The position numbers were made by a program, and so were the translations under genes. The notes beneath the pieces are model-generated. The model did not search any database. It had not been told where the DNA came from and saw only the letters and a program-made list of their open reading frames with translations. This document shows, piece by piece, positions 4,890-63,293 of a stretch of DNA of 64,000 nucleotides; position 1 is the first letter of the stretch, and each line of letters begins with the position of its first letter. This DNA comes from Roseibacillus sp. (GTDB lineage Bacteria; Verrucomicrobiota; Verrucomicrobiia; Verrucomicrobiales; Akkermansiaceae): contig JBPOGI010000006.1 in the NCBI GenBank assembly GCA_051251855.1, positions 64,001-128,000 of the forward strand. The letters run 5' to 3'.

Positions 4890-5809
4890 GATTTGCTCGT
4901 TGGGTTGTTAGGAGGGCGGAAGGATTTAGCGAAGACGACGAAGATTTCCCGCAGGCTGAGGGTTTGGATTTCGTTTGATAAGGCGGCGGGAAAGTGCTCT
5001 TTAATGAGGGAAGGAAGAACAGCTTCTTGATGACGGTGGTCGATGAAGCGCACAGTGCGCCCAGAGACTTGGATGTCGCTCCATGTGGCGGGCAGGTCGG
5101 CGGGGAGTTCTTCGGTCTCTGGGAGATGAATGGTGATTCTACGGAATCGTTCGATGAGCTCGTCGGTTGATTCATTGAGTTCGAGGTGGCCGCGATTGAG
5201 AATGGTCACGCGGTCGCAGAGGCGCTGCACTTCGTCGATATCGTGGGAGGAGATAAGGACAGACCAGCCCTCGACTTCGGTGAGTTCTAACAGACCGTGA
5301 AGGAATTCGTCACGCACGAGGGGGTCGAGTCCGGAGAAGGGTTCGTCAAGAATAACCACCTGCGGGCGGTAGGCGAGGCTGGAGAGGAGAGCAGCCTTCA
5401 TTCTTTGCCCTCGGGAAAGGGAGCGGAGTTTGGTCTTCATGGGAATGTTGAATTCACCAAGAAGCTTTTTCTCGAAGTCTCGGTCCCAGTCGGGATACAT
5501 GGGTCGGAGGTAGTCGAGGAGTTGGGTAACGTTCATCCAACCGGGGAGTTCTTGGTTCTCTGAGACGTAGCCGATGCGTTGCAGTTGGTTGGGGCCAAGT
5601 TTGCGGGAGTCACAACCGAGAATCTTGGCGTAACCGGAGTCGGGAATTTGGAGGTTCAGGAGGCACTTAATGGTGGTCGTTTTACCGGCTCCGTTGGGTC
5701 CTAGGAAGGCGGTGACGGCTCCTTGAGGAATGGACAAGGTAAGGTCGTTCACGGCGGGAACCTGGCGGAATGTCTTGGTGAGGTTTTCGAGTTCGATAAT
5801 GGAGCTCAT
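4886..5809 (-). CDS. ABC transporter ATP-binding protein (YtrB/CcmA-like)
   Basis: Walker A GPNGAGKTT, signature LSRGQ, Walker B VILDEP, H-loop SSH. Confidence 0.95.
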   Translation of the reverse strand: MSSIIELENLTKTFRQVPAVNDLTLSIPQGAVTAFLGPNGAGKTTTIKCLLNLQIPDSGYAKILGCDSRKLGPNQLQRIGYVSENQELPGWMNVTQLLDYLRPMYPDWDRDFEKKLLGEFNIPMKTKLRSLSRGQRMKAALLSSLAYRPQVVILDEPFSGLDPLVRDEFLHGLLELTEVEGWSVLISSHDIDEVQRLCDRVTILNRGHLELNESTDELIERFRRITIHLPETEELPADLPATWSDIQVSGRTVRFIDHRHQEAVLPSLIKEHFPAALSNEIQTLSLREIFVVFAKSFRPPNNPTSKS

Positions 5810-6183
5810 GATGATTTGCGGTGATGGTTGCGGAGGGCGGTAAGGACGTCTTCAAGGTCGAGGCCGAGTTCTTGGGCTTGCATTAATAGCTCGTCGCAAG
5901 CGGGAGAAAGGAGGTCGAGGCATTCAGATTTGTTCGGGAGGTCAGGTTCTCCCACGACCATTCCGATCCCGGGGCGAGAGACGAGATAGCCAGCGGACTT
6001 GAGTTGGCTCACCACTTTGTGAGCGGTGGTTGGACTGATTTTGAGTTCCTGACTGATGGCTCGCACGGAGGGAAAGTGGTCTCCCTTGACCAGCTGCCCT
6101 GTGAGCACGGCCTTGCGAACTGCTTGCAGAATTTGGTCAGAGACAGGAATACCGTCTTTGAGCTGGAGAAAGAAAGGGAGCAT
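5806..6183 (-). CDS. GntR-family regulator, YtrA subfamily
   Basis: 125 aa, wHTH (FPSVRAISQELKISPTT...RPGIG), short C-terminus, heads an ABC operon. Confidence 0.9.
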   Translation of the reverse strand: MLPFFLQLKDGIPVSDQILQAVRKAVLTGQLVKGDHFPSVRAISQELKISPTTAHKVVSQLKSAGYLVSRPGIGMVVGEPDLPNKSECLDLLSPACDELLMQAQELGLDLEDVLTALRNHHRKSS

Positions 6184-6194
6184 CAGAAACTTGA

Positions 6195-6233
6195 AGGTGT
6201 AACAGGAATAGTGTTACACCTGAGACGCGTCAA
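6195..6233 (-). promoter_or_regulatory. Putative YtrA operator overlapping a sigma70-like promoter
   Basis: Perfect inverted repeat AGGTGTAACA-N7-TGTTACACCT (6195-6221); minus strand TTGACG-N17-TATTCC. Confidence 0.7.
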
Positions 6234-6319
6234 TGGAAAAGTGACTTCACCTTCTTTGTGAGAAACACCGATGTCGGTGTAACCTTTCTCTCAAGGGGTG
6301 GTTAGTCTTGGATGTAACT

Positions 6320-7186
6320 ATGAAAAATACATTACTGACTCTGGGGGCTTTGACGGCTTCGACCTTGGCTTCGCCGATTCAATTTGAGGAAATTCCAGCG
6401 AAGGCGCAGTGGTACTTGCATGCAGATGTGGATGCCATTGGAGAAACTGAAGTGGGCGAACTGCTCAAGGAGATCGTTAAGGAAGATGCGGGTAAGGAGT
6501 TGAAGGCGATGGCGCGGATTTTTGCTTTCGATCCTTTGGAAGACATGGAAGCAATGACTCTCTTTGGGGAGGGGGACAAGGCGGTGGTGCTGATTCGAGG
6601 GGAGTTTGATCGCGAGCACATGGAGGATGTCATTGGGGGCGCGGATGAGCATGAATCCCGAGAGTATGAGGGGATGACGGTTCATAGCTGGGACGATAAG
6701 GGAAAGACTCAGCATGGCGCTTTTATAGAAGATAAATTGATCGCGTTTTCAGAGCATCCGAAGCACCTGAGGTATGCGCTCGATGTCTTGGGTGGACGCA
6801 AGGATGCGATGGAAAAGGAGGAGGCAGACGGTTCTCCGTTGGTCTTTGGCTTAGCGAATCTTGCTGAGATGGACATCGAAGATGAGGACATGAAAGTTCT
6901 CCAACAGGCGAAGTCGATGACGGCGCGGATGGATGAAAATGGGGAAGAGATGGTGGCAACCCTGGAAATCTCAACTGACGACAGGAAGCTCGCGAAACGC
7001 ATGCGCCGGATGGTTGACGGTTTATTCGCGATGGTGGAGACGAGCATCCCTGATATCGACGACTATGAGATCGAAAGCGAAGTCGAGCTTGGGGAAGAAG
7101 AGACCGATATTGTCGCGAAAGTGCAGATGCCTTCCGAGCGGGTATTCGACTTCTTGAAATACTTGGATACTCTCGAAGACGAGTAA
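6320..7186 (+). CDS. Secreted acidic hypothetical protein
   Basis: Signal peptide MKNTLLTLGALTASTLA; first gene before the ECF sigma; ECF-like GTAACC...GTTA upstream (6279-6304). Confidence 0.75.
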   Translation: MKNTLLTLGALTASTLASPIQFEEIPAKAQWYLHADVDAIGETEVGELLKEIVKEDAGKELKAMARIFAFDPLEDMEAMTLFGEGDKAVVLIRGEFDREHMEDVIGGADEHESREYEGMTVHSWDDKGKTQHGAFIEDKLIAFSEHPKHLRYALDVLGGRKDAMEKEEADGSPLVFGLANLAEMDIEDEDMKVLQQAKSMTARMDENGEEMVATLEISTDDRKLAKRMRRMVDGLFAMVETSIPDIDDYEIESEVELGEEETDIVAKVQMPSERVFDFLKYLDTLEDE

Positions 7187-48114: not shown

Positions 48115-48183
48115 TGCTGGGGTGAGGGGGTGGCATCTCAAGGCAATGATTTTTTCTTAAGACAAAAAAGATGAAGAAAGGGG

Positions 48184-48212
48184 TTGACCCAAATCATATT
48201 AATCTATAACTC
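48184..48212 (+). promoter_or_regulatory. Putative sigma70 promoter of the RNA/tRNA/RtcB unit
   Basis: TTGACC (48184) with TATAACTC at 48205-48212; A/T-rich upstream tract. Confidence 0.55.
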
Positions 48213-48265
48213 TTCTCGAACGCCGCCGCAGGAGCGGTCAAACCAGAAGGAGGGAATTTTCCATC

Positions 48266-48493
48266 ATGAACGATTTAAGCCATATCAAAACCAACTCGCT
48301 CGCAGCGGCCCAAGTGCACTGTTATCGCGGGATGTCCGGTTCGTTGATTGGCGGCATAGATGGCCTCCGGATTCAACCGACAGGGAATGCAAATGCGTTG
48401 AGTGCAAGACTCAGCTGGGAGAATGGCTCCAAAGGGATGCCCGCATTTGGTACCGAACTGAGCGAGAATAAACTGGCAAGCAGGATTACGTAA
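48266..48493 (+). CDS. Putative 75-aa leader (attenuator) peptide
   Basis: AAGGAGG at 48247-48253 before the ATG; stop codon lies within the antiterminator helix. Confidence 0.65.
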   Translation: MNDLSHIKTNSLAAAQVHCYRGMSGSLIGGIDGLRIQPTGNANALSARLSWENGSKGMPAFGTELSENKLASRIT

Positions 48494-48518
48494 ATCACTG
48501 ATTCATAAGGATTTTTAC

Positions 48519-48552
48519 GGCCCTGCTTCCCCCACGGAGGCAGGGCCTTTTT
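48519..48552 (+). terminator. Intrinsic terminator (attenuator)
   Basis: GGCCCTGCTTCC-cccac-GGAGGCAGGGCC-TTTTT. Confidence 0.85.
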
Positions 48553-48779
48553 GTATTTAACCATTTAGAAGAACCGAGAAATTGAAATAAGAACGAGAAA
48601 GGGAGAGCTCACCCAGGTTGTCGCAATTGCGATGACGACCTGCGATGCGCAGACCCTGAAAACGAATTTGAAAGACAGAACCTGAAAAAGAAGAACCGCC
48701 GCCAGCTGTAACTGGCGACGGCTCCGACAGCACCACCGGACGGAATCCGATGAATCAACTGCGCAAGATGATTCTATCT

Positions 48780-49975
48780 AAGATGATGTTTCGGTCAAGA
48801 AAGACTTAACTTCACAGATAAGTGAAGGCAGGGAATTCATGTGCTCATTTTCAGGCCCAAAAGGCTTGTTGGAAGATGTGCCAAAGGAAACATCGAAAGG
48901 TCCGCCGAGAAATCCCCGCGGCCACGGTTCGAGAGAACGGTGACGGTGTTTGTTCCTAGAAAATGAATGGAACAAGGACATTCCTGTCCTTGTTCTATTT
49001 TGGAAGGAGCAGGCCTTTGTGGTTTGCTCCTCTCCAAATCGAAGTTCTCTGGAGTTGGAGCACGTCTTACGTTGAGGCGTCGCATGCTCATGCTCACAGA
49101 GGATTTCGATTTGGAGTTATCTGAATGGCGGTCTGGCGTCATGAGATAGGCGTGTCGAAAGGCACGTAAAGGGGCAGCAACCCTGTCTGCCCGCCTTCTT
49201 CCCTTTGGGGAGAAGGACAACCAGACAAACCTAGTTCCAATGACTTCGCGGCCGGCAGCTGCGGAGTGATGCTGGAAGATGGGAGATGCTCCATTGCGGA
49301 CGGCAAGTGCTCAAGCAATGGTGGGTGTAGCAACCCACAGAGTCTTTACGCCAAACATCGACAGTTGAGAACGAAGGGGAGTCACCGAGTGCGAAGCTTA
49401 GCGGCCAAGAGCCCGGTGGCAGTCCAGTGGTGCGGGAAAGGAGACGAGTCTTTCAAACTCGAAACCTCTCCCTAGTCGCGAAGACCGTAACGTCTGTAGC
49501 AACGGACGGGACAAGAGGCGTGTGGAATTTTGTTGTTGAAAAGGCAACGGACCCACCGGACGCACGCGTCTCATAGAAGGGTATCGGATAGTACGAGAGG
49601 AAATCCACCAGACTTTAGATCTGTTCCAAACGCAAAGATGCGTCCTTGATTGTGTGAAAATGGCTTAAGCCCTGACCAAATTTTGGAATCAGGGTCTGAC
49701 GGGACTCGCAAGGTCCCCGAGGATTGATGGAATGCCGCACGGTGGAGTAGCTCTCCTTCATGGCCCAGCCGGGTCGACGGTAGGTTGAACATCGAGAAGC
49801 ACAGTCAGAAGGGAGTGCCGCCACTTCCTCACCAAAGGCAGTCAGGTAGGAATACAAAGGGTGGGCCTCTAGCGCCCTCCTTTGTGGAAGACTTGGGAAG
49901 GTGAGCCGTCGCTGGCTCGCGATAATCCAAGGCGAGTTCCTATGTGCGAGGGTGTCCTTCTCAACCCTTGCTATC
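48780..49975 (+). ncRNA. Large structured ncRNA, GOLLD-like (5' boundary uncertain)
   Basis: No credible CDS; many hairpins (48966-48999, 49006-49030, 49032-49116, 49151-49166, 49670-49694, 49701-49717, 49854-49885); 3' hairpin 49946-49971 whose loop TTCTCA complements TGAGAA 49366-49371; directly upstream of a tRNA array. Confidence 0.7.
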
Positions 49976-49991
49976 TATTTTCTAACAATGT

Positions 49992-50067
49992 GGGAGCGCA
50001 TGTGCCAGAGGGGCGATGCTGCCTTGCAAGCAGCGTGTGGCGGGTGCAAGTCCCGTCACCTCCACCA
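49992..50067 (+). tRNA. tRNA-Ala(UGC), two acceptor mismatches
   Basis: GCTGC-cttgcaa-GCAGC; G3:U70; T-loop TGCAAGT; CCA. Confidence 0.8.
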
Positions 50068-50075
50068 ATTTTTCT

Positions 50076-50151
50076 AGCGGGGAGAGTGTTGGTATCTCAA
50101 GAGGGTCTCATACGCCCTCGTCCGTGGGTTCGATTCCCACCTCCGCAACCA
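50076..50151 (+). tRNA. tRNA-Met(CAU), initiator-like
   Basis: AGGGT-ctcatac-GCCCT; A1:A72 mismatch; ...CGCAACCA. Confidence 0.8.
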
Positions 50152-50160
50152 TTTCTAAGG

Positions 50161-50234
50161 GGCGCGCAAACATTATGGTGATGTGCCTGACCTCCAATCA
50201 GGAAAACGGAGTTCGAGTCTCCGGCGTGCTACCA
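50161..50234 (+). tRNA. tRNA-Gly(UCC), atypical (C33, A73)
   Basis: CCTGA-cctccaa-TCAGG; TTCGAGT; CCA. Confidence 0.7.
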
Positions 50235-50244
50235 ATTTTTCAAA

Positions 50245-50318
50245 GGTCCATTGATGTAAAAGTAGCCTCCCTGTCTGTCGAACAGGTTGAGCCGGAGCAT
50301 TACCGGCATGGACCGCCA
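50245..50318 (+). tRNA. tRNA-Asp(GUC)
   Basis: GGTCCAT/ATGGACC, G73; CCTGT-ctgtcga-ACAGG; T-loop AGCATTA; CCA. Confidence 0.82.
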
Positions 50319-50327
50319 TTTTCAAGT

Positions 50328-50404
50328 GGGGACCATGGTGTAACGAGTAAGCATCCGGCACTGTGAACGCCGCGGAATGGGTGCAAGTCCCATTGGTCCC
50401 CCCA
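50328..50404 (+). tRNA. tRNA-His(GUG)
   Basis: G-1:C73; loop ctgtgaa; T-loop TGCAAGT; CCA. Confidence 0.88.
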
Positions 50405-50415
50405 ACTTTTGGAAA

Positions 50416-50491
50416 TGTCCTCGACGGAGCTAGTGAACCGGACGGTTTGCAAAACCGATCATGCGGGGGGCGGAACCCCGGAGGACATCCA
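50416..50491 (+). tRNA. tRNA-Cys(GCA)
   Basis: TGTCCTC/GAGGACA, U73; loop ttgcaaa; T-loop GGCGGAA; CCA. Confidence 0.78.
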
Positions 50492-50502
50492 TCTTTCTAA
50501 AT

Positions 50503-50575
50503 TCCAGCGTGGCGGAAAATCGCGCCGCTCTTGTAAAGCGGATGATGCAGGCAACCAGTCCTGTCGCTGGATCCA
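50503..50575 (+). tRNA. tRNA-Thr(UGU), aberrant T-loop
   Basis: TCCAGCG/CGCTGGA; CCGCT-cttgtaa-AGCGG; T-loop CAACCAGT; CCA. Confidence 0.72.
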
Positions 50576-50585
50576 ATTTGACAAT

Positions 50586-50660
50586 TCTTCTGTCGTCCAA
50601 AGGCGAGGACACCAGGCTACGAACCTGGAGATGCGAGTTCGAGTCTCGCCGGAAGTACCA
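50586..50660 (+). tRNA. tRNA-Arg(ACG)
   Basis: CCAGG-ctacgaa-CCTGG; TTCGAGT; CCA. Confidence 0.88.
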
Positions 50661-50673
50661 TTCTCATGAGAAC

Positions 50674-50747
50674 GCGGGCTTGGTGTAAAAGAAGCACATC
50701 TGTTTTACATGCAGATCGAGGGGGTGCGATACCTCCAGCCCGTACCA
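50674..50747 (+). tRNA. tRNA-Val(UAC)
   Basis: GCGGGCT/AGCCCGT; loop tttacat; T-loop TGCGATA; CCA. Confidence 0.82.
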
Positions 50748-50753
50748 ACTTTC

Positions 50754-50841
50754 ACGAAGTGTTCCCACCACGGTCTTCTAAGCCGTCGACGATAAACTGT
50801 GGGCAGGATGTCGAGGGGTTCGAGTCCTCCACTTCGTTCCA
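50754..50841 (+). tRNA. tRNA-Arg(UCU)-like, no D-arm, expanded variable region
   Basis: ACGAAGT/ACTTCGT; ACGGT-cttctaa-GCCGT; TTCGAGT; CCA; only 9 nt between acceptor and anticodon stems. Confidence 0.7.
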
Positions 50842-50846
50842 TTTTT

Positions 50847-50919
50847 GCCTGCGTAGCCCAACGGAAGAGGCGCCCGGCTTAGAACCGGTTCAGTGTGGGT
50901 TCGACTCCCTCCGCAGGTA
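50847..50919 (+). tRNA. tRNA-Leu(UAG), short variable loop, no encoded CCA
   Basis: GCCTGCG/CGCAGGT, A73; loop cttagaa; TTCGACT. Confidence 0.85.
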
Positions 50920-50928
50920 CTTTTCTAA

Positions 50929-51002
50929 TTCCATGTAGCCCAACTGGTAGAGGCTCTCGACTTAAGATCGAGCAAGTGTCAGTTCGACTCTGACCATGGA
51001 AA
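50929..51002 (+). tRNA. tRNA-Leu(UAA), short variable loop, no encoded CCA
   Basis: TTCCATG/CATGGAA, A73; CTCGA-cttaaga-TCGAG; TTCGACT. Confidence 0.85.
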
Positions 51003-51008
51003 TTTTCA

Positions 51009-51095
51009 GGAGTTCGAACCGGACAAGCGAGCCGGTCGCGTTTGCTAAACGCTGAGTTGCCATTTGGTAAAGGGGTGCAAGTCCTCCGAGCTCCG
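51009..51095 (+). tRNA. tRNA-Ser(GCU)
   Basis: GGAGTTC/GAGCTCC, G73; loop ttgctaa; long variable arm; T-loop TGCAAGT; followed by CCG. Confidence 0.82.
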
Positions 51096-51105
51096 CCGTT
51101 TTTTA

Positions 51106-51193
51106 GGAGGGTGCCGCTAAGTGGCTGGCAACTGGTCTTGAAAACCAGGGTAGGCATTGCGTCCTAGGGGTTCGATTCCTCCACCCTCCGCCA
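51106..51193 (+). tRNA. tRNA-Ser(UGA)
   Basis: GGAGGGT/ACCCTCC, G73; CTGGT-cttgaaa-ACCAG; long variable arm; CCA. Confidence 0.9.
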
Positions 51194-51196
51194 ATC

Positions 51197-51271
51197 ATCC
51201 CAGTCGTCTAATTGGTAAGACGCCCCGCGCCGAGCGGGGAGATGCCGCTTCGAAGTCGGCCGGGGAATCCC
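51197..51271 (+). tRNA. Degenerate tRNA-like gene (nominal anticodon CCG)
   Basis: Intact D-arm GTCT/AGAC; CCCCG-cgccgag-CGGGG with G33; two acceptor mismatches; ends TCCC. Confidence 0.55.
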
Positions 51272-51277
51272 TTTTCT

Positions 51278-51352
51278 GGGTCTGTAGCTCAATTGGTAGA
51301 GCAACCGGTTTTTACCCGGTCGATGCGGGTTCGAGACCCGACAGACCCACCA
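51278..51352 (+). tRNA. tRNA-Lys(UUU)
   Basis: GGGTCTG/CAGACCC; ACCGG-tttttac-CCGGT; CCA. Confidence 0.9.
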
Positions 51353-51361
51353 ATTTTCAAC

Positions 51362-51517
51362 GCTCCTGTCAGCTATGGGTAGGCTTTCGCACTTTCACTG
51401 CGGCAAACCGGGTTCGAATGCATTTCTTGGTTACAAGACATTCTGAACATCCAGCTCGGGGCGAGCTGCATACCGCATGGACCTGAAGGATGAAGGTCAA
51501 TCCCGGCAGGAGTACCA
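51362..51517 (+). tRNA. tRNA-Glu(UUC) with 82-nt T-loop insertion
   Basis: GCTCCTG/CAGGAGT-A-CCA; loop ctttcac; T-stem CCGGG (51408-51412) and CCCGG (51502-51506) separated by TTCGAAT plus 82 nt. Confidence 0.85.
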
Positions 51518-51524
51518 ATTTTCT

Positions 51525-51599
51525 CGGGGGGTAGTTCAATGGGAGAACGCGCGCTTTGGAAGCGTGAGGTTGTCGGTTTGAGTCCGGCTCCCCCGACCA
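51525..51599 (+). tRNA. tRNA-Pro(UGG)
   Basis: CGGGGGG/TCCCCCG-A-CCA; loop tttggaa. Confidence 0.9.
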
Positions 51600-51607
51600 C
51601 TTTTAAT

Positions 51608-51768
51608 TCCCGGATAGCTTAATCGGCAGAGCACTCGACTTTGACTCGAGCAGTGTGGGTTCGATTGCCCTCGCTCCGCTCATGCCATGCGATGTCCAGT
51701 TTCCTCCTCCGGAAACTGAGAAATTCGATGCGCATAAATGTGCGGAAGCATTCCCACTCCGGGCACCA
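51608..51768 (+). tRNA. tRNA-Gln(UUG) with 86-nt T-loop insertion
   Basis: TCCCGGA/TCCGGGC-A-CCA; CTCGA-ctttgac-TCGAG; T-stem GTGGG (51655-51659) and CCCAC (51753-51757) separated by TTCGATT plus 86 nt. Confidence 0.85.
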
Positions 51769-51789
51769 ATTTTAACCAAACATGAAACA

Positions 51790-52383
51790 ATGATAACACT
51801 AGTAAAAGCGAAAGACCTTCGCCCCATCTTGGAGACGGAACGTCTTCTCTTGCGTCCCCTTGAAATGAACGATGCTGCCGACGTGCGTCGCCTAGTCGGT
51901 GATATTCGTGTGGCCGAAAATCTAGGGCTTGTTCCGCATCCCTATCCAGAGGGACTGGCGGAAGAATGGATTTCTGGTCAGAGAGCAGAATATGAAGCGG
52001 GTAGGCATCTCACTTTTGCGATTACTACCAAAGCAACTAACGAACTGATGGGAGTAATCAGCCTTCATCCCAAAGAAGATCTTCTTCGCGCGTCAGTTGG
52101 TTACTGGGTTGGCGTTCCCTATTGGGGAAACGGCTACACCACGGAGGCTCTCAAGGAGATGCTCCGATTTGGCTTTGACGACTTTGCCCTGCAAAGAATC
52201 TTCGCTACTCACTTTGTCACCAATCCTGCTTCGGGCCGGGTGATGGAGAAAGTGGGGATGCAGCTCGAAGGCGTGATGAAGCTGGGTATCTCAAGATTTG
52301 GGGTGCTGCGCGACAGTATGCAGCGAGCGATCATCAAACCCGATTGGGAACGCCAGCGACAGGCGGAAGAACTTTACTGCTAG
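51790..52383 (+). CDS. RimJ/RimL-family GNAT N-acetyltransferase
   Basis: LETERLLLRP, VGYW, YWGNGYTTEA, NPASGRVMEKVGM. Confidence 0.92.
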   Translation: MITLVKAKDLRPILETERLLLRPLEMNDAADVRRLVGDIRVAENLGLVPHPYPEGLAEEWISGQRAEYEAGRHLTFAITTKATNELMGVISLHPKEDLLRASVGYWVGVPYWGNGYTTEALKEMLRFGFDDFALQRIFATHFVTNPASGRVMEKVGMQLEGVMKLGISRFGVLRDSMQRAIIKPDWERQRQAEELYC

Positions 52384-52455
52384 ACCGTGTCGTGTGTGAA
52401 AGCGGCGGGTGGGCACTTTGCCAGCCCACTCGCCGCAAACCCATTTAACTTACCA

Positions 52456-53220
52456 ATGAATAAAAATAGAAATGAGCAGAGGCGTTTGAAATCAGAACGT
52501 CTGGAAACGCGAGACAAAGTGATTCTTGCCCTTGAACGAGAGCGCCGAGATTTGTGGAACCAGCTCCGGAAAGCTCCTTTGGAAGAACTGAAGGAGCCTT
52601 ATCAAAAAGGCTGGGAGCGGTTCTTTGTTCTCAGCGAGCAGGCGAAGCGGAGAAAGGATGCCGAGAAGCTAGAATTGGCCCTTTCCCTTATTCGGAATTA
52701 TCAGCGCTGTTCCGTGAATCCATTTCGACACTATCGCTACAAGAGCAAGCGCATGGTGCCATGGGAGCACAATTTGAGTGGATTAAGAGCGAGAGCTTTT
52801 CTATCTCAACGGACTTCCGAGGAGGTCATGCAATACTTTCGAGTGCGTCTGCGTGAGCCTTTGACTCGAGAGCGAGTTCGAGAATTGGTTCGTTCAGGTT
52901 GGCAGGGAAAATTTTGGTTCCGCTACCCTGAGTATGCGGTTTCTCAAGTGCAGCCATTTATGATCACACACTGCCGCGTAGCTTTGCCCGAGGTGGAGAG
53001 CCGCTTGTCTGAAGTAGAGGCGACCCTTCGAAAAGATGGTAACGAATATCGGCTTCGCCATCTCAAGGATTGGGGCTTTAGCTGTTGGCGTCGGATGGAT
53101 GAAAGGGCTCAAGAAATGAAGGAGGTGCCGCTGATTCGGAGAGAGATTGAAGAAGCGATCTTTGACTTCGAAAGTAAGCAGGAGCCTAGCTACTGGTGTC
53201 CCGTTCTTTTTCTCAATTGA
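52456..53220 (+). CDS. Basic (Arg/Lys-rich) hypothetical protein
   Basis: ATG 52456; PYQKGWERFFVL motif; co-oriented within the unit. Confidence 0.75.
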   Translation: MNKNRNEQRRLKSERLETRDKVILALERERRDLWNQLRKAPLEELKEPYQKGWERFFVLSEQAKRRKDAEKLELALSLIRNYQRCSVNPFRHYRYKSKRMVPWEHNLSGLRARAFLSQRTSEEVMQYFRVRLREPLTRERVRELVRSGWQGKFWFRYPEYAVSQVQPFMITHCRVALPEVESRLSEVEATLRKDGNEYRLRHLKDWGFSCWRRMDERAQEMKEVPLIRREIEEAIFDFESKQEPSYWCPVLFLN

Positions 53221-53542
53221 AGGAGAACGCGACGTCAGTGGCTGCGCTGTGAGTTGCAATACCACGCTTTAAACTAGGAACAAACACCAGGGGATTTCGG
53301 CGGAGCTTTCGATGGGTTCTTTGACTCTGAAACGAGCAGTAGAAAACCCAAGAAATGCAGAAGAGAGCAGCATCAGTGAGAAGAAGAATCCGGCATTTAC
53401 TGGAGAAGAAAGAGAAGCAGAAAAAGAAGATTCAACCCGAGTCTCCCCGCGAGAAAACCGACTATGAACAATCGCCAGTGAATCAAATCACGGTGAGGAC
53501 GATAGAGGGTTTTTGGGGACAGCAATAAGAAGAGAAAAAGAG

Positions 53543-54142
53543 ATGAACACCGTAATGAATAAGAGCGTCGTGCTCGTGCTAAACAGGCACTGGCAAGCCG
53601 TCAATGTCACCACCCCCGCGGAGGCCTTTGCTTCCATGATGACCGATGCCGCGACAGGCTTGGATATTCGAGGGGAAGACTGGATGGTTCCGGTGAAGTG
53701 GCAGGATTGGGTCCAGTTGTCTGTTCGAGAAGGAGACTTCTCGGTAGGGACGGTGGACGGTCAGGTGCGCGTTCCGACGGTGATTGTCTTGAGTCGTTTT
53801 GACCGAGTGCCGCGCAAGCGCCTCAGTTTCTCTTTGCGTGGTCTTTGGCTGCGGGATGGGGGACGGTGTCAATATACCGGACGTTCTCTCCGGCCAGAGG
53901 AAGGCAATATCGACCACGTCATTCCTCGCTCGCGCGGGGGAGAGACTTCTTGGGAGAACTGCGTGCTTTCTGACCGCAAGGTGAACAACCGGAAAGCAGA
54001 CCGGACCCCGGAAGAAGCGGGCTTACGCCTGAATTCCGATCCGGTGCGTCCTCCGGAAGTGCCCGTCACCTATTTGCTGCGGAATCCGTTCCAAATTGCA
54101 GATTGGGAGGTCTTCCTCCCTGAACGCTCGGAAGAAAATTGA
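53543..54142 (+). CDS. HNH endonuclease
   Basis: VLVLN; RDGGRCQY; IDHVIPRSRGG.TSWEN; N.RKADRTPEEAG. Confidence 0.92.
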   Translation: MNTVMNKSVVLVLNRHWQAVNVTTPAEAFASMMTDAATGLDIRGEDWMVPVKWQDWVQLSVREGDFSVGTVDGQVRVPTVIVLSRFDRVPRKRLSFSLRGLWLRDGGRCQYTGRSLRPEEGNIDHVIPRSRGGETSWENCVLSDRKVNNRKADRTPEEAGLRLNSDPVRPPEVPVTYLLRNPFQIADWEVFLPERSEEN

Positions 54143-54224
54143 TAAAATCTCGACCAACTTCAAGGCAAGTGGACCTGCAGGGAATTCCCGGAACGGTCTC
54201 CACGCATCGGCTCGATGGTCGAAC

Positions 54225-54290
54225 TCTGAAGTAGCTCAGATGGTAGAGCAACGAACTCATAATTCGTCGGTCACGGGTTCGATCCCCGTC
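54225..54290 (+). pseudogene. tRNA(CAU) fragment lacking the 3' acceptor strand
   Basis: D-arm GCTC/GAGC, ACGAA-ctcataa-TTCGT, ACGGG-TTCGATC-CCCGT, then CTAACAAAAC, which does not pair with TCTGAAG. Confidence 0.7.
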
Positions 54291-54299
54291 TAACAAAAC

Positions 54300-54437
54300 A
54301 AGCCCCTTTCGCTCCAGATTGCTTCGGCAGTCAGCTCGAACTTGGCCCAGCGAATCACGCCGCTCCTCAGTCCCGAATGTTTCCGGATGAGTGACGCGAT
54401 GATTCCCGCCGGGAAAGAGTGGAGTGGGGGAGGCTTA
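54300..54437 (+). ncRNA. Candidate structured RNA
   Basis: AAGCCCCTTTCGCTCCA pairs with TGGAGTGGGGGGAGGCTT; internal GATTGC-TTCG-GCAGTC hairpin. Confidence 0.45.
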
Positions 54438-54469
54438 CAAATTTAACCCCAAAGAAAGAAAAAGAAGAA

Positions 54470-55237
54470 ATGAATGAATGGATGATCGTAGCAGTGGTTG
54501 TCGCAGTGGCGGCCGCTCTTGGAATGGTGAAAGTGATCCTAGGCAACCGCCAGAAGGTGATCGTGAATAGTTTTGAGAAGGCCCTCATGTTCTACAATGG
54601 CAAGTTGGTGAAAGAGCTGGAAGCGGGTGAGACCGTTTTCTGGGGTCAAGGATACGAAGTGAAACGTGTCGATGGCCGTTGGCAGGAGTTGGTGGTGCAA
54701 AGCCAAGAATTCCTGACCGCCGACCGAGCTTCCGTGAAGGTGAGCGGAGTGGTGCGTTTTCGCGTGGCGGATGCGCTGAAGTATTTCGGCGAATCCCAAG
54801 CGCCTCTCGTGACCGTTCATACCGCGACTCAGATGGCACTGCGTGATGTGGTGGGAAGTCTGGGCGTGGAAGCGGTGCTGGAGCGTCAAGACGGTCTCGG
54901 TGATCGAATGAAGGCTCTGGTTGCGGCCCCAGCGGAAGCTCTTGGAATCGAAGTCAACGCTGTCGTGGCGCGTGACCTGATGCTCGCCGGTGACCTGAAG
55001 AAGGCCTACCAGGCGACTTTGAGCGCGAAACAAGAAGCTCTCGCAGGACTTGAAAAGGCCCGTGGCGAGGCGGCTGCTATACGTGTGAAAGCGAATGCTG
55101 CCCGGGTTTACGAAAAGAACCCTGCCTTGCTGCAACTCGAAGCTCTCGAGACCGTGGCGAAGCTGGGGGACGGAATGAACAACCATCTGGTGCTTGGATC
55201 ACTCGATTCCTTGCTGAAGATGGTGAAAACTGAATGA
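54470..55237 (+). CDS. SPFH/band-7 (slipin-like) protein
   Basis: N-terminal TM; QEFLTAD, LRDVVG, RDLML, LEKARGEAAAIR..ANAA, NPALLQL. Confidence 0.9.
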   Translation: MNEWMIVAVVVAVAAALGMVKVILGNRQKVIVNSFEKALMFYNGKLVKELEAGETVFWGQGYEVKRVDGRWQELVVQSQEFLTADRASVKVSGVVRFRVADALKYFGESQAPLVTVHTATQMALRDVVGSLGVEAVLERQDGLGDRMKALVAAPAEALGIEVNAVVARDLMLAGDLKKAYQATLSAKQEALAGLEKARGEAAAIRVKANAARVYEKNPALLQLEALETVAKLGDGMNNHLVLGSLDSLLKMVKTE

Positions 55238-55302
55238 TAGAAAAACTGGGGACGCCTCGCCGTGAATGCTGCGGGGCGTCCCTTACAAACTTTTGAAAAA
55301 CA

Positions 55303-56877
55303 ATGAGCCTGATTGGACAGGAAGAATTAATTGAAGCGGGTTGGGAACCTGGTCCGCACTTTGGAGAGATGATCGTGAAGCTGCGTGAATATGAAGAGCG
55401 TGGTATTTGCGATAAGAAGTATTTGCTCAAGCTGTTAGCGAAGGACTTTGGGGAACCAGAGCCTAAGTTGGCGATGCGTCCTGCGCCGGTGAAGTGCGCG
55501 GAAGCGATTCGTCCCGAGAACGATGAGGAGAAGGAGAATGTGTCGAGAGTTCGTCAGAAGATGAGCGAGCTCTTGAAGGTTCCCGTGATTTCTCAAGGGG
55601 CGGTGATGCCCGATGCGTGTCCGGCGGGAATGCATGAAGCGACCATTCCGGTGGGCGGGGCCATTGCGGTGGAAAATGCGATCATTCCAAGCGCGCATTC
55701 AGCGGATGTTTGCTGCTCCATGTTTGCCTCTTTCTACGTGGAACGCAGTAGTGTCGCCAGCGAGCTGGATGCTTTGACGGCGGCGACTCGTTTCGGTCCC
55801 GGTGGTCGTCACTATGACCACTTGGTGGAGCATACCGTGAATGAGGAAGACTTTTGGTCGAATCCGTTTTTGAGCGGGTTGAAGGACTACGGACGCATTC
55901 ACATGGCTGACCAAGGGGACGGGAATCACTTTGCCTACTTGGGTGAAGTCGAGGTGACCTCTGATGTTGTGAGCAAGCTGCACTTGGCTGGATATGGCGC
56001 GCTTGCGGATCAGCTTTCGGGTTCTGGAGAGAATCAAGAGACGCTGCGTCTTCGCGTTCTGGTGACTCATCATGGGTCGCGAGGATTGGGAGCGCATCTC
56101 TATAAGCGAGGTCAAAAGGCGGCTTTGAAGCAAACCGACAAGGCAGCGCGAGGGGTTCCTTCGGCAGCGGCGTGGTTGGATGCGCGCAGTGATGACGGCC
56201 GTGCTTATTGGGAGGCTTTGCAATATGTGGGTCTTTGGACTCGTGCCAACCACGAGGCTATCCATGAGCGTTTCTTGAACAACATCGGAGCGGAAAAGCT
56301 GGCGAGCTTTGGCAATGAACATAACTTCGTGTGGAAGCGTGGGGATGTCTTCATGCATGGCAAGGGAGCGACTCCAGCTTGGAAAGACTCCGATGGGCGT
56401 CCGCTGTTAGGATTGATTCCGCTCAATATGGCGGAGCCGATTCTGATGGTGCTGGGCGGCGACCAGAGCGAGTTCCTTTCCTTTGCTCCTCACGGTGCCG
56501 GCCGAAATGTTTCCCGAACCAAGTTGCGTGGTCGTTACGGCGACGAGGCCACTCGTCAGAATGTGATTGCGCATCATACCCGGGACATCGACGTGCGCTG
56601 GTATTGTGGTAAGGCGGACCTGAGCGAAACTCCGGTGGCCTACAAAAATGCCGACCAGGTGAAGGCGCAGATTCAGGAATTCGGCCTCGCGGAAATCGTG
56701 GCTGAGATTCGTCCTCTGGGATGCATCATGGCCGGCGAGAGCCCTCGGATGGATTGGAAGAAGTATCGCAAGGAGCAGTTAAGTCCGAAGCAGAAGCGTC
56801 AGATTCAGCATCGTGCGGAGCGACGTAAGACCAAGCAAGGTCTCGGGAATTGGGACGAGCCCGATTCCTTAGATTGA
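55303..56877 (+). CDS. rtcB: RtcB-family RNA ligase
   Basis: MPDAC, ADVCCS, GDGNHF, HHGSRG, HNF, KGATP, HGAGR, ETP.AYK. Confidence 0.93.
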   Translation: MSLIGQEELIEAGWEPGPHFGEMIVKLREYEERGICDKKYLLKLLAKDFGEPEPKLAMRPAPVKCAEAIRPENDEEKENVSRVRQKMSELLKVPVISQGAVMPDACPAGMHEATIPVGGAIAVENAIIPSAHSADVCCSMFASFYVERSSVASELDALTAATRFGPGGRHYDHLVEHTVNEEDFWSNPFLSGLKDYGRIHMADQGDGNHFAYLGEVEVTSDVVSKLHLAGYGALADQLSGSGENQETLRLRVLVTHHGSRGLGAHLYKRGQKAALKQTDKAARGVPSAAAWLDARSDDGRAYWEALQYVGLWTRANHEAIHERFLNNIGAEKLASFGNEHNFVWKRGDVFMHGKGATPAWKDSDGRPLLGLIPLNMAEPILMVLGGDQSEFLSFAPHGAGRNVSRTKLRGRYGDEATRQNVIAHHTRDIDVRWYCGKADLSETPVAYKNADQVKAQIQEFGLAEIVAEIRPLGCIMAGESPRMDWKKYRKEQLSPKQKRQIQHRAERRKTKQGLGNWDEPDSLD

Positions 56878-56883
56878 TGGACG

Positions 56884-58413
56884 CTAATCCCGAGTGCCGC
56901 GGGGATCCTTTTTGGGGACCTTGAGTTCTGTCCGAAGACGCGTGAGCTCTTTTTCGAGAGTCTTGCGCGTTTCAGCATAGCTCGGGTCCTCAAAAACGCT
57001 CTTCAATTCATGCGGATCAGTTTGGAGGTCGAAGAGTTGCCAGTAGTCATCGGGCTTGTAGAGATGGACCAGTTTGTAGCGGTCGGTAATGACGCCATAG
57101 TGGCGTGGCACGCTGTGGACGCCGGGAAACTCGTAGTAGTGATAGTAGAAGCTCTTTCGCCAGTCTTCGGGTGTTTCTCCCTTGAAAAGAGGAAGCAGGC
57201 TTTGGCCCTGCATGTGGCTGGGGACGGGAATGTCGGCGGCTTCGAGGAAGGTTTCGGCGAAGTCCAAGTTGGAAACGATGTCTTTGTTCACGCTGCCGGG
57301 CGCAATGACGTCGGGCCAGCGCACGAGGAGAGGTGTTCGCACCGATTCTTCATAAATCCAGCGCTTATCAAACCAGCCGTGCTCGCCAAGGTAGAAGCCT
57401 TGGTCGGAGGAGTAAACGACGATGGTGTTTTCTCCTAAACCAGATTCGTCCAAATAGTCTAACAGTTTTCCCACGCTGTCATCGACGGAAGCAATGCAGG
57501 CCAAGTAGTCGTGCATGTAACGTTGATACTTCCAGCGAACCAATTCTTCTCCTTCGAGATTGGCTGCTAAGAATTTCTCGTTACGAGGTTGATAGTAGGC
57601 GTGCCATTGGTCGCGGACGGACTTGGGAATGCTGCTGTTGATTTTCAGTTTGAGGTCGCCCTCATGCATGGTCTTGGCGAGGGACATGTCTTGGTTTCGT
57701 TCGCCGGGGCCACGGCCTGAGTAGTCATCGAAGAGTGTCTCTGGTTCGGGGTAAGGTTTGCCGTTATCATGATCGAGTTTGTCGACGTGGGGCGACCAGT
57801 TGCGATGGGGCGCCTTGTGCTGGCACATCAGGAGAAAGGGTTTGGAGGGGTCGCGTTTTTCCTTCAACCATTCCAGACTGAGGTCGGTCACGATATCGCT
57901 GACGTAACCCTTTTCGCGAACGTCTTCTCCATTGAGAATCATCTTGGGGTTGTAGTATTGCCCTTGGCCGGGGAGGACTTGCCAGTGGTCAAAACCGGTG
58001 GGAGAGCTGCCCAAGTGCCACTTGCCGATGACGGCGGTTTGGTAGCCGTTGGCTTGTAGCTGTTTGGGGAAGGTGACTTGCGAGCCATCGAATTTGCAGC
58101 CGGCATTGTCGACGAAGCCGTTGATGTGATTGTAGGTGCCGGACATGATGGTGGCCCGGCTGGGTCCGCAGATGGAGTTCGTTACAAGGCAACGGTCGAA
58201 GCGCATCCCTTCCTTGGCGAGGCGATCAATGTTGGGAGTTTTGTTACGGTTCGAGCCATAGGCGCTGATGGCTTGGTAAGCGTGGTCGTCCGAAAAGATG
58301 AAGACGATGTTGGGCTGCTCCTTGGCGACGAGTAAGCCACTAGAGGCGAAAGCGAGTAAGGCGCTACTCAGGACGGCTAAAGAGGATCGAAAGAAAGAAG
58401 AGCGAGGAATCAT
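56884..58413 (-). CDS. Sulfatase (secreted)
   Basis: [26 protein letters not shown]. Confidence 0.95.
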
Positions 58414-61879: not shown

Positions 61880-62392
61880 ATGAAAATCAGCACTCTCTCC
61901 AAGTCTCTTGCTCTTGCCGTCCCGCTTGTCGCGGTGGCTCCCGCCCATCTCGATGCCGCCGCCTATATCAAGTTTGATGGCATTATTGGCGAGGTCTCCG
62001 AAACCGGGTTCGAAGGTTATATCAAGTTCGATGGCTTCAAGATCGAGATTGATGGCACCAAGGCGACCGAGAAATTTGGAATTCCTTCTTTTAGTTTCCA
62101 AATGGAGAAGTCCTCGCCTCGGCTCATGTTGGCCTGTGCCAATGGCCTGACCATTCCCTCTGCGACTATTATCATGACAAGGCCTCACAGCAGTGGTCAG
62201 GAGAAAAGTTACCTCAAATATGAGCTCACCAATGTCAGAGTGCTCACTTACGGAAGCGATCGGAATGAACTGACGGATATCCCGGCAGATTCTTTTAGTC
62301 TCAACTATGAGGAGATTAAGGTCACCTATCAGGTCCTCGACTCTGCGGGCAATCCAATTGAAACCGTGACCACCGGCCCCTTGTTGCGATAG
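61880..62392 (+). CDS. Hcp-like (T6SS tube fold) protein with signal peptide
   Basis: AYIKFDGIIGE, EKSSPRLMLACANG, YLKYELTNVRV, SFSLNYEEIKVTY. Confidence 0.8.
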   Translation: MKISTLSKSLALAVPLVAVAPAHLDAAAYIKFDGIIGEVSETGFEGYIKFDGFKIEIDGTKATEKFGIPSFSFQMEKSSPRLMLACANGLTIPSATIIMTRPHSSGQEKSYLKYELTNVRVLTYGSDRNELTDIPADSFSLNYEEIKVTYQVLDSAGNPIETVTTGPLLR

Positions 62393-62414: not shown

Positions 62415-63293
62415 ATGAATTCACGCACACTTCATAGAGTCCTTCTCATCGGACTCTTGCTCACCTCGGGACTTCCGGGGGCTAGGCTTTATCTCAAGAT
62501 TGAAGGGATTCGGGGAGAGTCGACGCATGCGGCCTACCCCGGTTGGATTGCCGCCGATAGCTTGCAGTTCGCTGGTTCGCTTTTCAACGGAGCCGCTGGA
62601 GGGTTTGGAGTGGTGAAGTCTCCTGACCGTTCCTCGGTGAGGTTGTTGCAAGCCTTAGCCAGTGAGCGTTATCTTCCCCGCGTCACGGTCGCCTTTCTCA
62701 AGCCTGATCCAACCAACAATGCGGGGGAAGATGTCGAGTTTGCGCGCGTTCTTTTCCGTGATGTTCTCGTTCGCTCCTGTGAGCAGGAGACCTTCACTTC
62801 GGGAACAGGGGAGGTGCTCTTGCAGGAAAAATATCGCCTAAGCTTTCGGGCCGTTTTCTATCGCTACCAGTCGGACGCGGGGGAGTCCGAGACCTCCTAT
62901 GTTGATTTGGATTTGGGAGCGGATACGGATGGCGACGGGATGACCGATAACTATGAAGACTTCTTCGGTCTCAACAAAAACCTCGATGATAGCGCGCTCG
63001 ATACCGACGGTGATGGCTTGACCCATCTGGAAGAGTTTCGATTGGGGCTCAATCCTCGTCTCTCGTCGTCTTCCTTCGTGCCCCGGGGTGGGGTGGATCC
63101 GGAAGACGCGGAGAACTTTCAGCTCACTTGGGCGACTAAGCCTGCCAAGTCCTATGACGTTTACTTCACTTCCGATTTGGCGCAGGAACCGGCCTTCCTT
63201 CGCCGAGTGACGGCGAGTGAGATGGATTCTTCGACGAGTTTTCGTCGCCTGCAATCGCGTGGGTTTTTCTCAATTCGAGAAGTGGTGGAGTGA
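62415..63293 (+). CDS. Hcp-like protein with signal peptide and acidic DxDGDG C-terminal domain
   Basis: LYLKIEGIRGES...GWI, DRSS..L, E.Y.LSF; DTDGDG twice, E.RLGLNP. Confidence 0.75.
   Translation: MNSRTLHRVLLIGLLLTSGLPGARLYLKIEGIRGESTHAAYPGWIAADSLQFAGSLFNGAAGGFGVVKSPDRSSVRLLQALASERYLPRVTVAFLKPDPTNNAGEDVEFARVLFRDVLVRSCEQETFTSGTGEVLLQEKYRLSFRAVFYRYQSDAGESETSYVDLDLGADTDGDGMTDNYEDFFGLNKNLDDSALDTDGDGLTHLEEFRLGLNPRLSSSSFVPRGGVDPEDAENFQLTWATKPAKSYDVYFTSDLAQEPAFLRRVTASEMDSSTSFRRLQSRGFFSIREVVE

Follow-up and report, generated by a model that had tools for sequence, protein, structure and literature searches.

The 64,000-nucleotide stretch of DNA analysed here (the window) comes from Roseibacillus sp. 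(positions 64,001 to 128,000 of the forward strand of contig JBPOGI010000006.1, assembly GCA_051251855.1) and is part of contig C10 in our numbering of a genome (G000) of 4.96 Mb in 13 contigs that is 95.4% complete. Between positions 48168 and 56912 the window carries, all on the + strand, a block of genes in which a large RNA of the GOLLD family, a dense array of tRNA-like units and the gene for an RtcB RNA ligase follow one another behind a candidate attenuator. The order runs from a promoter-like site through an open reading frame (ORF) of 75 codons, an intrinsic terminator, an RNA of about 1.4 kb with no credible ORF and the tRNA-like units to five ORFs, with an extra tRNA-like element sitting between the third and the fourth of these. 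A first-pass annotation, made from the sequence letters, had outlined an operon of this kind, and the parts it had placed on the + strand are all present close to where it had put them. Two sets of relatives were used for comparison. Family-level counts refer to 151 genomes of Akkermansiaceae that were scanned, and locus comparisons (L numbers) refer to the best 80 of 249 close RtcB matches in species-representative genomes, all 80 of them from Verrucomicrobiota. G004 denotes a same-genus relative, Roseibacillus persicicus KCTC 12988, whose RtcB locus is L011, and G098 denotes Oceaniferula spumae NT6N.

The block opens with a promoter-like site at 48168..48211 (+), made up of the upstream motif AAGATGAAGAA and the hexamers TTGACC (48184-48189) and TATAAC (48205-48210), which a consensus promoter scan omitted because the second hexamer ends in C. 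The same arrangement is matched by pattern in L009, L011 and L016, and a similar one was read in L017. The leader ORF of 75 codons, taken from the ORF list (48266..48493, +), has GGAGG ahead of it and is followed by an intrinsic terminator at 48519..48552 (+), in which a hairpin with a 12-pair stem, nine pairs of it G-C (48519-48547), runs into a stretch of T. Promoter-like motif, small ORF and terminator can be aligned across the window and its counterparts in G004, L009 and L016, with the stop codon of the small ORF at the same aligned place in all four. The leader peptide matches none of the families of Pfam, NCBIfam, PHROGs and PADLOC, and its comparison with the G004 counterpart yields 11, 15 and 14 differences at codon positions 1, 2 and 3, and 21 nonsynonymous against 7 synonymous codon changes, together with one in-frame gap of four codons. 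The frame is hence kept while the residues drift, which suggests that what matters is the act of translation and not its product; that the leader is indeed translated is made probable by the GGAGG sequence and the conserved open frame.

The putative regulatory element of this leader is the heptamer AAGCAGG at 48478..48484 (+), a candidate antiterminator strand ending 6 nt before the leader stop codon. Its sequence is identical to a segment of the terminator 3' arm, and it pairs with the terminator 5' arm in the minimum-energy fold lacking the 3' arm, so that the arrangement comprises a short ORF before an intrinsic terminator and a mutually exclusive antiterminator that overlaps the ORF. In all 11 leaders folded (6/6 plus 5/5) the terminator 5' arm pairs with the last codons of an ORF of 54-101 codons. 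The stem sequence of the terminator is conserved in nine loci, with CCCTGCTT...AGC(A/G)GGG kept in L009, L011, L016, L017, L061, L064, L070 and L072, and L018 and L008 form another helix at the same place, with a compensatory change (GGTCTGCAT/ATGCAGACC vs GGTCTACAT/ATGTAGACC). In L016, L017 and L061 the leader lies directly ahead of a tRNA-HNH-RtcB group. Leader ORF, terminator and antiterminator pairing recur, then, in 11 loci, and the whole looks like a translation-coupled attenuator, in agreement with the gating that had been proposed for the operon. Several of the related leader peptides share further features at their ends. The C-terminal sequence GMNP(E/K)P(P/R)(G/E)NRV is common to those of L061 (7139-7303), L064 (7132-7296), L070 (8840-9043) and L072 (8016-8180), where it stands just before the antiterminator strand. 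PPG or PPE forms part of this sequence, and such a motif is present in three of the other leaders (L061, L064 and L070).

Downstream of the terminator, the stretch in which the first-pass annotation had recognized a giant non-coding RNA, possibly GOLLD, ends in a full-length match to the Rfam family RF02032 (49513..49967, +; 116.3 bits, E 1e-30, model positions 1-416 of 416). Nearly all helices and conserved unpaired motifs of this GOLLD 3' core are kept in the cmscan alignment, with few non-standard pairs, and the scores of relatives range from 98 to 153 bits. The preceding 5' domain (48553..49512, +) contains no credible ORF and folds more stably than shuffled sequence, with a z-score of -8.55 on the + strand vs -5.41 on the - strand (960 bases, 20 shuffles each). 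Its conserved core of some 280 nt (about 48680-48960) is found in six loci and includes a covarying hairpin; the domain is conserved in genomes G018, G050 and G078 and in loci L008, L009 and L018. With a profile built from the window and G004, the complete RNA (starting at about 48505 or 48665 and ending at 49990) is recovered in G018, G050 and G078, and only its 5' part in L008 and L009. At the DNA level, positions 48161-49987 are 85% identical to G004 and the protein genes 68-76%. A length of about 1.4 kb free of ORFs, a less conserved 5' domain and adjoining tRNA genes, the first of which starts 23 nt past the core, are all as expected of GOLLD, and in this lineage GOLLD is an RNA of 1.3-1.4 kb with a conserved 5' domain of its own. 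The weak Rfam matches in the region are at chance level (ctRNA_pGA1 on the - strand, YrlA with E of at least 0.13, permuted tmRNA and Plastid-ycf2).

Two side observations concern this RNA. In L008 (3604-3901) and L009 (4818-5588) the 5' domain stands immediately before tRNA arrays with the Rfam-defined 3' core missing, and it may be an RNA module by itself. In addition, the 5' domain of the window alone holds a palindromic hairpin of 30 nt, GGAACAAGGACATTCCTGTCCTTGTTC, at 48966-48995. It is missing from that place in five relatives, and three similar copies lie in the tRNA array of G004 (5315-5338, 5389-5413 and 5673-5699 on the reverse complement of L004); this is a second small mobile hairpin, besides the repeat described below.

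The tRNA array covers 49990..51768 (+), where ARAGORN, Rfam and a cloverleaf scan together delimit 19 tRNA-like units. ARAGORN calls ten tRNAs between 50076 and 51599, Rfam adds those at 51611-51678 and 54230-54291, and the cloverleaf scan adds Ser(gct) at 51009-51094; relaxed ARAGORN settings returned mostly noise. The genes for Glu(ttc) (51362-51513) and Gln(ttg) (51608-51764) have T loops as long as 89 and 93 nt but are otherwise complete, the units at 50245-50314 and 50416-50487 (Asp- and Cys-like) are full cloverleafs with non-canonical T loops, and four further units are only tRNA-like. The 19 tRNA genes of the first-pass annotation thus stand as 19 array units in 1.8 kb of one strand, but only 13 of them are credible canonical cloverleafs, and an acceptor-less element has to be added at 54230. 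This element (54230..54291, +; RF00005, 50.9 bits, model positions 6-65) combines a CAU anticodon loop with well-formed D, anticodon and T arms. It lies between the HNH and SPFH genes, a place between HNH and SPFH/RtcB that it also keeps in L012, L013, L016, L026 and L061, and may be a processing signal.

The idea that these are spare, atypical tRNAs fares well. The genome has 51 tRNA and tmRNA (transfer-messenger RNA) genes according to ARAGORN, and each of the ten anticodons called by that program in the array has another copy elsewhere (10/10), so that the array tRNAs are supernumerary. Thirteen units (the ten plus Ser(gct) and the Asp- and Cys-like ones) are 57-75% identical to their housekeeping copies. 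Most array tRNAs encode CCA, and the array tRNA-His, as read from its sequence, retains G-1:C73. The Leu genes with anticodons UAG and UAA (50847-50920 and 50929-51002) have 74 nt and lack a long variable arm, whereas the housekeeping tRNA-Leu genes have 82 nt and a long variable arm; the array Leu(UAG) gene of G004 is likewise short (76 nt), and array 'Leu' genes are also called by ARAGORN in L007. Being spare and divergent, the array tRNAs match the published description of long tRNA arrays (L-arrays) as supernumerary and of foreign origin (PMC8421152), and the array as a whole is dense, confined to one strand, patchy in its distribution among relatives and linked to an HNH gene. The order and content of the tRNAs differ between the window and G004, and the non-canonical units 6, 7 and 10, as read from the sequence, are also kept in L009. 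The G004 array holds, furthermore, a small ORF (L011, around 5590-5840, which is 6190-6440 on the reverse complement of L004) with a SEC-C-like motif, CPCGSGRKFKQCC; the window is without this ORF.

The long T loops of the Glu and Gln genes are due to inserts. An 83-nt insertion occupies the T loop of tRNA-Glu(ttc) at 51418..51500 (with a weak match, of 17 bits, to the repeat R1 on the - strand), and an 88-nt structured repeat, R1, that of tRNA-Gln(ttg) at 51665..51752 (+). Both genes are intact in G004, where it is the Gly gene that contains two inserts. R1, which is not in Rfam, has a conserved 5' part, TTGCCYTCGCTCCGCTC..GCCATGCG, and two covarying hairpins, one with a conserved UCCUCC loop and the other variable. 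Of the six copies present in the arrays of three genomes, five share one T-loop position, GGTTCGA|TT|CC. A covariance model built from these six copies detects R1 in 52 of the 151 family genomes, with up to 12 copies per genome, in tandem, in both orientations and outside tRNAs, as in G000 itself (C6:306611-306704, C6:84462-84553, C1:6875-6966 and C1:7989-8080). The repeat often sits at T-arm-like targets (GA|TT|C) and is polymorphic between strains. DNA contigs of the metagenome runs X5 and X6 join position 51417 to 51501, and come therefore from relatives without the Glu insert, while other joints show that relatives have R1 copies in their Gly, Ser(gct) and unit-4 genes. Because of these dispersed copies and of the uninterrupted DNA forms in relatives, the inserts are best regarded as a mobile, polymorphic DNA repeat and not as conserved introns. 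No R1 copy (E<=1) was detected at any of the eight loci of the genome that match Y1_Tnp.

All four protein families announced by the first-pass annotation (GNAT, HNH, SPFH and RtcB) were named by Pfam, and the five ORFs that follow the array are all intact. The last of them (55303..56877, +) encodes the sole RtcB RNA ligase of the genome (Pfam E 8e-36, with a domain score of 124.6 bits vs a cut-off of 27). It belongs to a divergent, phage-like subfamily, for which phrog_1075 is the best match (E 1e-76); against the NCBIfam bacterial equivalog it reaches 93.6 bits, where the cut-off is 407, and its identity to the RtcB of Rhizobium phages is about 40%. Its motifs DvcC (D..C), H-GSRGLG and PHGAGR align to Pyrococcus horikoshii RtcB (PH1602), in an alignment that does not resolve His203. 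We take the residues concerned to be the metal-binding Asp, Cys and His, and the His of HGAGR to be the one that accepts GMP. One of the Rhizobium phages, B1VFA, has RtcB, HNH and prohibitin genes within 10 kb; among its proteins only RtcB is detectably similar to those of the window, and there are no tRNAs near these phage genes.

Upstream of RtcB lies a SPFH/Band_7 protein with an N-terminal hydrophobic helix (54419..55237, +; Pfam E 1e-20; likely start ATG 54470), and before it a HNH endonuclease (53513..54142, +; HNH_4 E 3e-9, phrog_16726 E 1e-24; likely start ATG 53543). The latter is 30-48% identical to HNH genes located inside mycobacterial tRNA arrays (pCBMA213_1 and M. avium pS2b), and its only PADLOC matches are to Cas9-type HNH domains, with none to a defence-system family. 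The first ORF after the array is a RimJ/RimL-like GNAT acetyltransferase (51790..52383, +; Acetyltransf_3, Pfam E 5e-32; phrog_1249 E 2e-15) that scores far below the equivalog cut-offs of NCBIfam. The second (52387..53220, +; likely start ATG 52456) is a basic protein of 277 residues without Pfam, NCBIfam, PHROG or PADLOC family and with only 10 homologues found among 5.8 billion proteins; in the ESM Atlas, its matches were confined to unnamed clusters. Its structural model (pLDDT 76) has no Foldseek match in the PDB at E<=0.001, and the best match of a wide VIA-align search, which involved nothing but helices, had a Z of 5.0; no fold was assigned. Two gaps of about 280 nt separate the ORFs, at 53221-53512 and 54143-54418. 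The first of them, of 293 nt and ahead of the HNH gene, contains a block of 41 nt (53274-53314) with 97.6% identity to G004, and a longer stretch has 80% identity to L007; the DNA on either side is far less similar.

The distribution of these parts among relatives was analysed in the 58 of 80 RtcB loci with at least 3 kb of upstream sequence, the other 22 being dropped for having too little. A HNH gene is present in 25/58 and same-strand tRNAs in 15/58, and all 15 loci with tRNAs also have the HNH gene. SPFH (12/58), GNAT (9/58) and basic-protein homologues (8/58) are less frequent, and arrays of at least five tRNAs are found in five loci; the tRNA most often kept is tRNA-His (13 loci). RtcB of this type is chromosomal and occurs in 60 of the 151 family genomes, and GOLLD occurs in seven. 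In three of these seven, G000, G004 and G098, it lies in cis with RtcB, and G004 reproduces the gene order of the window from the upstream peptidyl-prolyl isomerase (PPIase) gene through RtcB. In G160, GOLLD precedes 11 tRNAs and a HNH gene, and in G050 and G078 it precedes tRNA-Met and a GNAT gene, with unrelated genes farther on in all three; in G018 it is followed by two tRNAs only. As regards the conservation of the combination put forward in the first-pass annotation, its tRNA-HNH-RtcB part recurs across genera, but the full combination of eight parts is conserved only in near relatives, and elsewhere the parts recombine. They form a flexible kit, the most constant links of which are those of GOLLD with tRNAs and HNH or GNAT, and of tRNA with HNH and RtcB. 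More generally, Verrucomicrobiales share a flexible tRNA-HNH-(SPFH)-(GNAT)-RtcB module, joined here to GOLLD at a chromosomal site that is not of phage type.

The setting of the locus bears out the description of its flanks as housekeeping-type and free of phage or integrase genes. Upstream are MutY, an aminotransferase and the PPIase, which occupies this upstream position in L009, L011 and L016 as well; downstream, a sulfatase and an amino-acid kinase are encoded on the - strand. Among the 33 ORFs scanned (20.6-63.3 kb) none matched an integrase or a phage structural family, and the G+C content of the locus matches that of the flanking DNA. A scan of viral contigs retrieved three distant loci, with only 38-43% identity. 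Of the 20 sequencing runs listed for this DNA, none is recorded as RNA. Directly 3' of the RtcB stop codon there is a weak match to a terminator, a hairpin with a 5-pair stem and a T run at 56888..56912 (+), and farther away the window contains an adjacent pair of genes with the Hcp domain of type VI secretion (61880-62392 and 62415-63293).

Several components of this locus have counterparts in known systems, and the background that the first-pass annotation drew upon (RtcB, cyanobacterial arrays and GOLLD near tRNA clusters) can be traced to published work (PMC8421152; PMC6582537; Kretsch et al.). Mycobacterial tRNA clusters carry GOLLD and a HNH gene (Behra et al. 2019, PMC6582537). In the Mycolicibacterium plasmid pCBMA213_1 we find GOLLD (196.7 bits) just upstream of the HNH gene, and this plasmid and M. 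avium pS2b hold 30 and 27 tRNAs, respectively, in 18 kb. These tRNA array units resemble the window in having GOLLD followed by a dense same-strand array with an embedded, homologous HNH gene. They differ in residing on plasmids or transferred islands, in having 27-30 or more tRNAs, in lacking RtcB, SPFH and GNAT within the 18 kb inspected, and in that no leader attenuator is described for them, whereas the locus of the window is chromosomal, belongs to another phylum and has a GOLLD of 1.3-1.4 kb. In cyanobacteria, L-arrays (for example the Anabaena PCC 7120 trn operon; Santamaria-Gomez et al. 2021, PMC8421152) come into expression under translational stress, have a conserved HNH gene and, in several species, an rtcB gene that is neighbouring or co-regulated, and Verrucomicrobia and Planctomycetes are among the phyla listed there as possessing such arrays. 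The window shares with them the supernumerary array, the HNH gene and rtcB, but has rtcB in cis, a candidate leader-ORF attenuator and a GOLLD RNA, which is not reported for those L-arrays. GOLLD has been described as an RNA of phages and prophages located near phage tRNA islands, and cryo-electron microscopy of another GOLLD has revealed a 14-mer cage (Kretsch et al.). A search of the literature collection consulted returned no report that links GOLLD with Verrucomicrobia, although supplementary tables of the cited papers may contain related loci.

RtcB is also encoded beside structured RNAs in proteobacteria, where RtcBA and Rsr-Y RNA-RtcB operons combine it with non-coding RNAs that have tRNA-like parts and are tied to tRNA damage. 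The juxtaposition of ligase gene and structured RNA is common to those operons and to the window, but no RtcA, RtcR or Ro/Rsr was found by Pfam among the ORFs of the window operon, and its RtcB is of the phage-like subfamily. Seen against these systems, the association of GOLLD, array and HNH gene (in mycobacteria) and that of stress-induced arrays with HNH and rtcB (in cyanobacteria) are already on record in published work. New are the attenuator-type leader, the single co-oriented chromosomal block that unites GOLLD with the array and RtcB, the genes for GNAT, SPFH and the basic protein that come in addition, and the occurrence of the arrangement in cultured strains. The locus can thus be described as a chromosomal member of the GOLLD/long-tRNA-array class (L-array, tRNA array unit) joined to a lineage-wide leader-tRNA-HNH-(SPFH)-(GNAT)-RtcB module.

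The best reading of this arrangement, to which we would assign about even chances on the strength of sequence comparison, is that a set of spare tRNAs and an RtcB ligase have been placed under the control of a translation sensor. The promoter would fire into the leader ORF, and a ribosome arriving promptly at the stop codon would mask AAGCAGG, allowing the terminator to form and transcription to end. Should the ribosome lag or stall, for instance through damage or depletion of tRNA, AAGCAGG would be free to pair with the terminator 5' arm and RNA polymerase would read on. Such read-through, provided that the parts are co-transcribed, would yield the GOLLD RNA of about 1.4 kb, supernumerary tRNAs of foreign type and the only RtcB of the cell, which could reseal breaks with 2',3'-cyclic-phosphate and 5'-OH ends such as those left by anticodon nucleases. 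The translation-rescue role suggested by the first-pass annotation is partly supported by the attenuator-like leader, the spare tRNAs and the RtcB motifs that have been kept. The inserts in the tRNA genes, which might have hinted at splicing, are a mobile repeat, and the scaffold role considered for the large RNA and the SPFH protein stays conjectural. A more elaborate version, in which the leader senses ribosome progress in general, a GOLLD cage presents spare or damaged tRNAs to RtcB, and HNH, GNAT and the membrane SPFH protein act as partners, seems to us rather improbable as a whole.

A number of observations weigh against the sensor-controlled reading. Like the trp and his attenuators, the leader would be a translated ORF before an intrinsic terminator, with an alternative helix on the 5' arm and the position of the ribosome deciding between the two. 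Unlike them, it has no run of regulatory codons in its 75-residue peptide and no identified '1:2' helix, it and its relatives (54-101 codons) exceed the usual size of classical leader peptides, and it would report the general progress of translation instead of the supply of one amino acid. In leaders of the Haloferula type the antiterminator strand is farther from the stop codon, 18-28 nt upstream of it, and adjoins PPG or PPE. These motifs stall ribosomes in the absence of elongation factor P, and their placement could invert the logic of the switch. A search with nhmmer found no leader upstream of GOLLD in G018, G050, G078 and G160, and in these same genomes RtcB is located elsewhere or was not found. 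The GOLLD match of the window remains below the Rfam gathering cut-off of 150 bits, which among its relatives only G160 passes. At least two of the 19 array units are split by the mobile repeat and six are non-canonical, a state that fits relaxed selection on part of the array. Finally, the two intergenic gaps could hold internal promoters, and the conserved block at 53274-53314 could be one such promoter or an RNA element.

Some of these same observations lend themselves to other explanations. The leader ORF and its terminator might be an ordinary short gene, with the downstream parts served by promoters of their own and no attenuation at all; an ORF of 75 residues that has a good ribosome-binding site and is followed by a strong terminator does look typical of one, the large gaps leave room for promoters, and four of the seven GOLLD genomes have no detected leader. 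Nevertheless, the codon changes (21 nonsynonymous vs 7 synonymous, spread 11/15/14 over the three positions) give no sign of selection on the residues of a peptide that belongs to no family, and the pairing kept in 11/11 leaders, one compensatory change and the leaders placed directly before tRNA-HNH-RtcB in L016, L017 and L061 are not what a short gene would call for, so that we hold this explanation to be unlikely. We are equally reluctant to see the locus as a phage-derived counter-defence cassette of prophage descent, domesticated or selfish, in which tRNAs and RtcB offset defences that cleave or deplete tRNA. The better fit of RtcB to phrog_1075 than to bacterial equivalogs and its resemblance to Rhizobium phage RtcB, the match of HNH to phrog_16726, the description of GOLLD in phages and prophages (Kretsch et al.) and the term putative antidefence system, applied to tRNA array units in a 2026 paper, all speak for such an origin. 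Against it stand the absence of integrase and phage structural genes among the 33 ORFs, a G+C content like that of the flanks, a PPIase neighbour that recurs in four loci, the remoteness of the few viral loci, the chromosomal location of this RtcB type in 60 of 151 genomes, and a leader that seems to sense the translation of its own cell and would better suit a host function.

The differences in tRNA order and content between the window and G004, the splitting of tRNAs by the repeat at different places in different strains, the six non-canonical units and the rarity of GOLLD (7/151 genomes) could also be the marks of horizontally acquired cargo in decay, with an eroding array and parts that are neighbours by history and have no joint function. 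An RNA that is better conserved than the protein genes, five intact ORFs, non-canonical units 6, 7 and 10 that persist in L009 and a tRNA-HNH-RtcB linkage that extends across genera make general decay quite improbable in our judgement. As for the inserts of 83-88 nt, they might be new bacterial introns, cut by the HNH or the basic protein and sealed by RtcB, which is the splicing ligase of archaea and animals (PMC8421152); the shared T-loop position of five of the six array copies and the covarying hairpins are in keeping with this notion. Covarying hairpins, on the other hand, are also expected of a mobile element acting at the DNA level, and the presence of R1 outside tRNAs, in tandem and in both orientations in 52/151 genomes, together with the uninterrupted forms of close relatives, shows an insert that is neither confined to tRNAs nor fixed in position, as archaeal-type splicing would have it. 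The genome, at 95.4% completeness, has no match to EndA (PF01974). We accordingly rejected RtcB-spliced tRNA introns of a new type as the main explanation and consider them very unlikely.

The reading that places spare tRNAs and RtcB under a translation sensor would give GOLLD an unaccustomed context. To our knowledge, this RNA has a solved structure and neither a function nor a regulator that is known. Here it is found on a chromosome and outside any prophage, behind a leader seemingly built to sense failing translation, and beside spare tRNAs and RtcB. The fact that the harmless cultured marine strains R. persicicus KCTC 12988 and O. spumae NT6N share the arrangement makes the timing and function of GOLLD accessible to genetics and RNA work. 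The locus also carries the link of tRNA arrays with HNH and RtcB beyond cyanobacteria and mycobacteria into the Verrucomicrobiota, and it adds what would be a second, cis-acting tie between such arrays and translational stress. Should the GOLLD cage indeed turn out to act as a scaffold in these bacteria, this would be the first cellular function of GOLLD outside phages.

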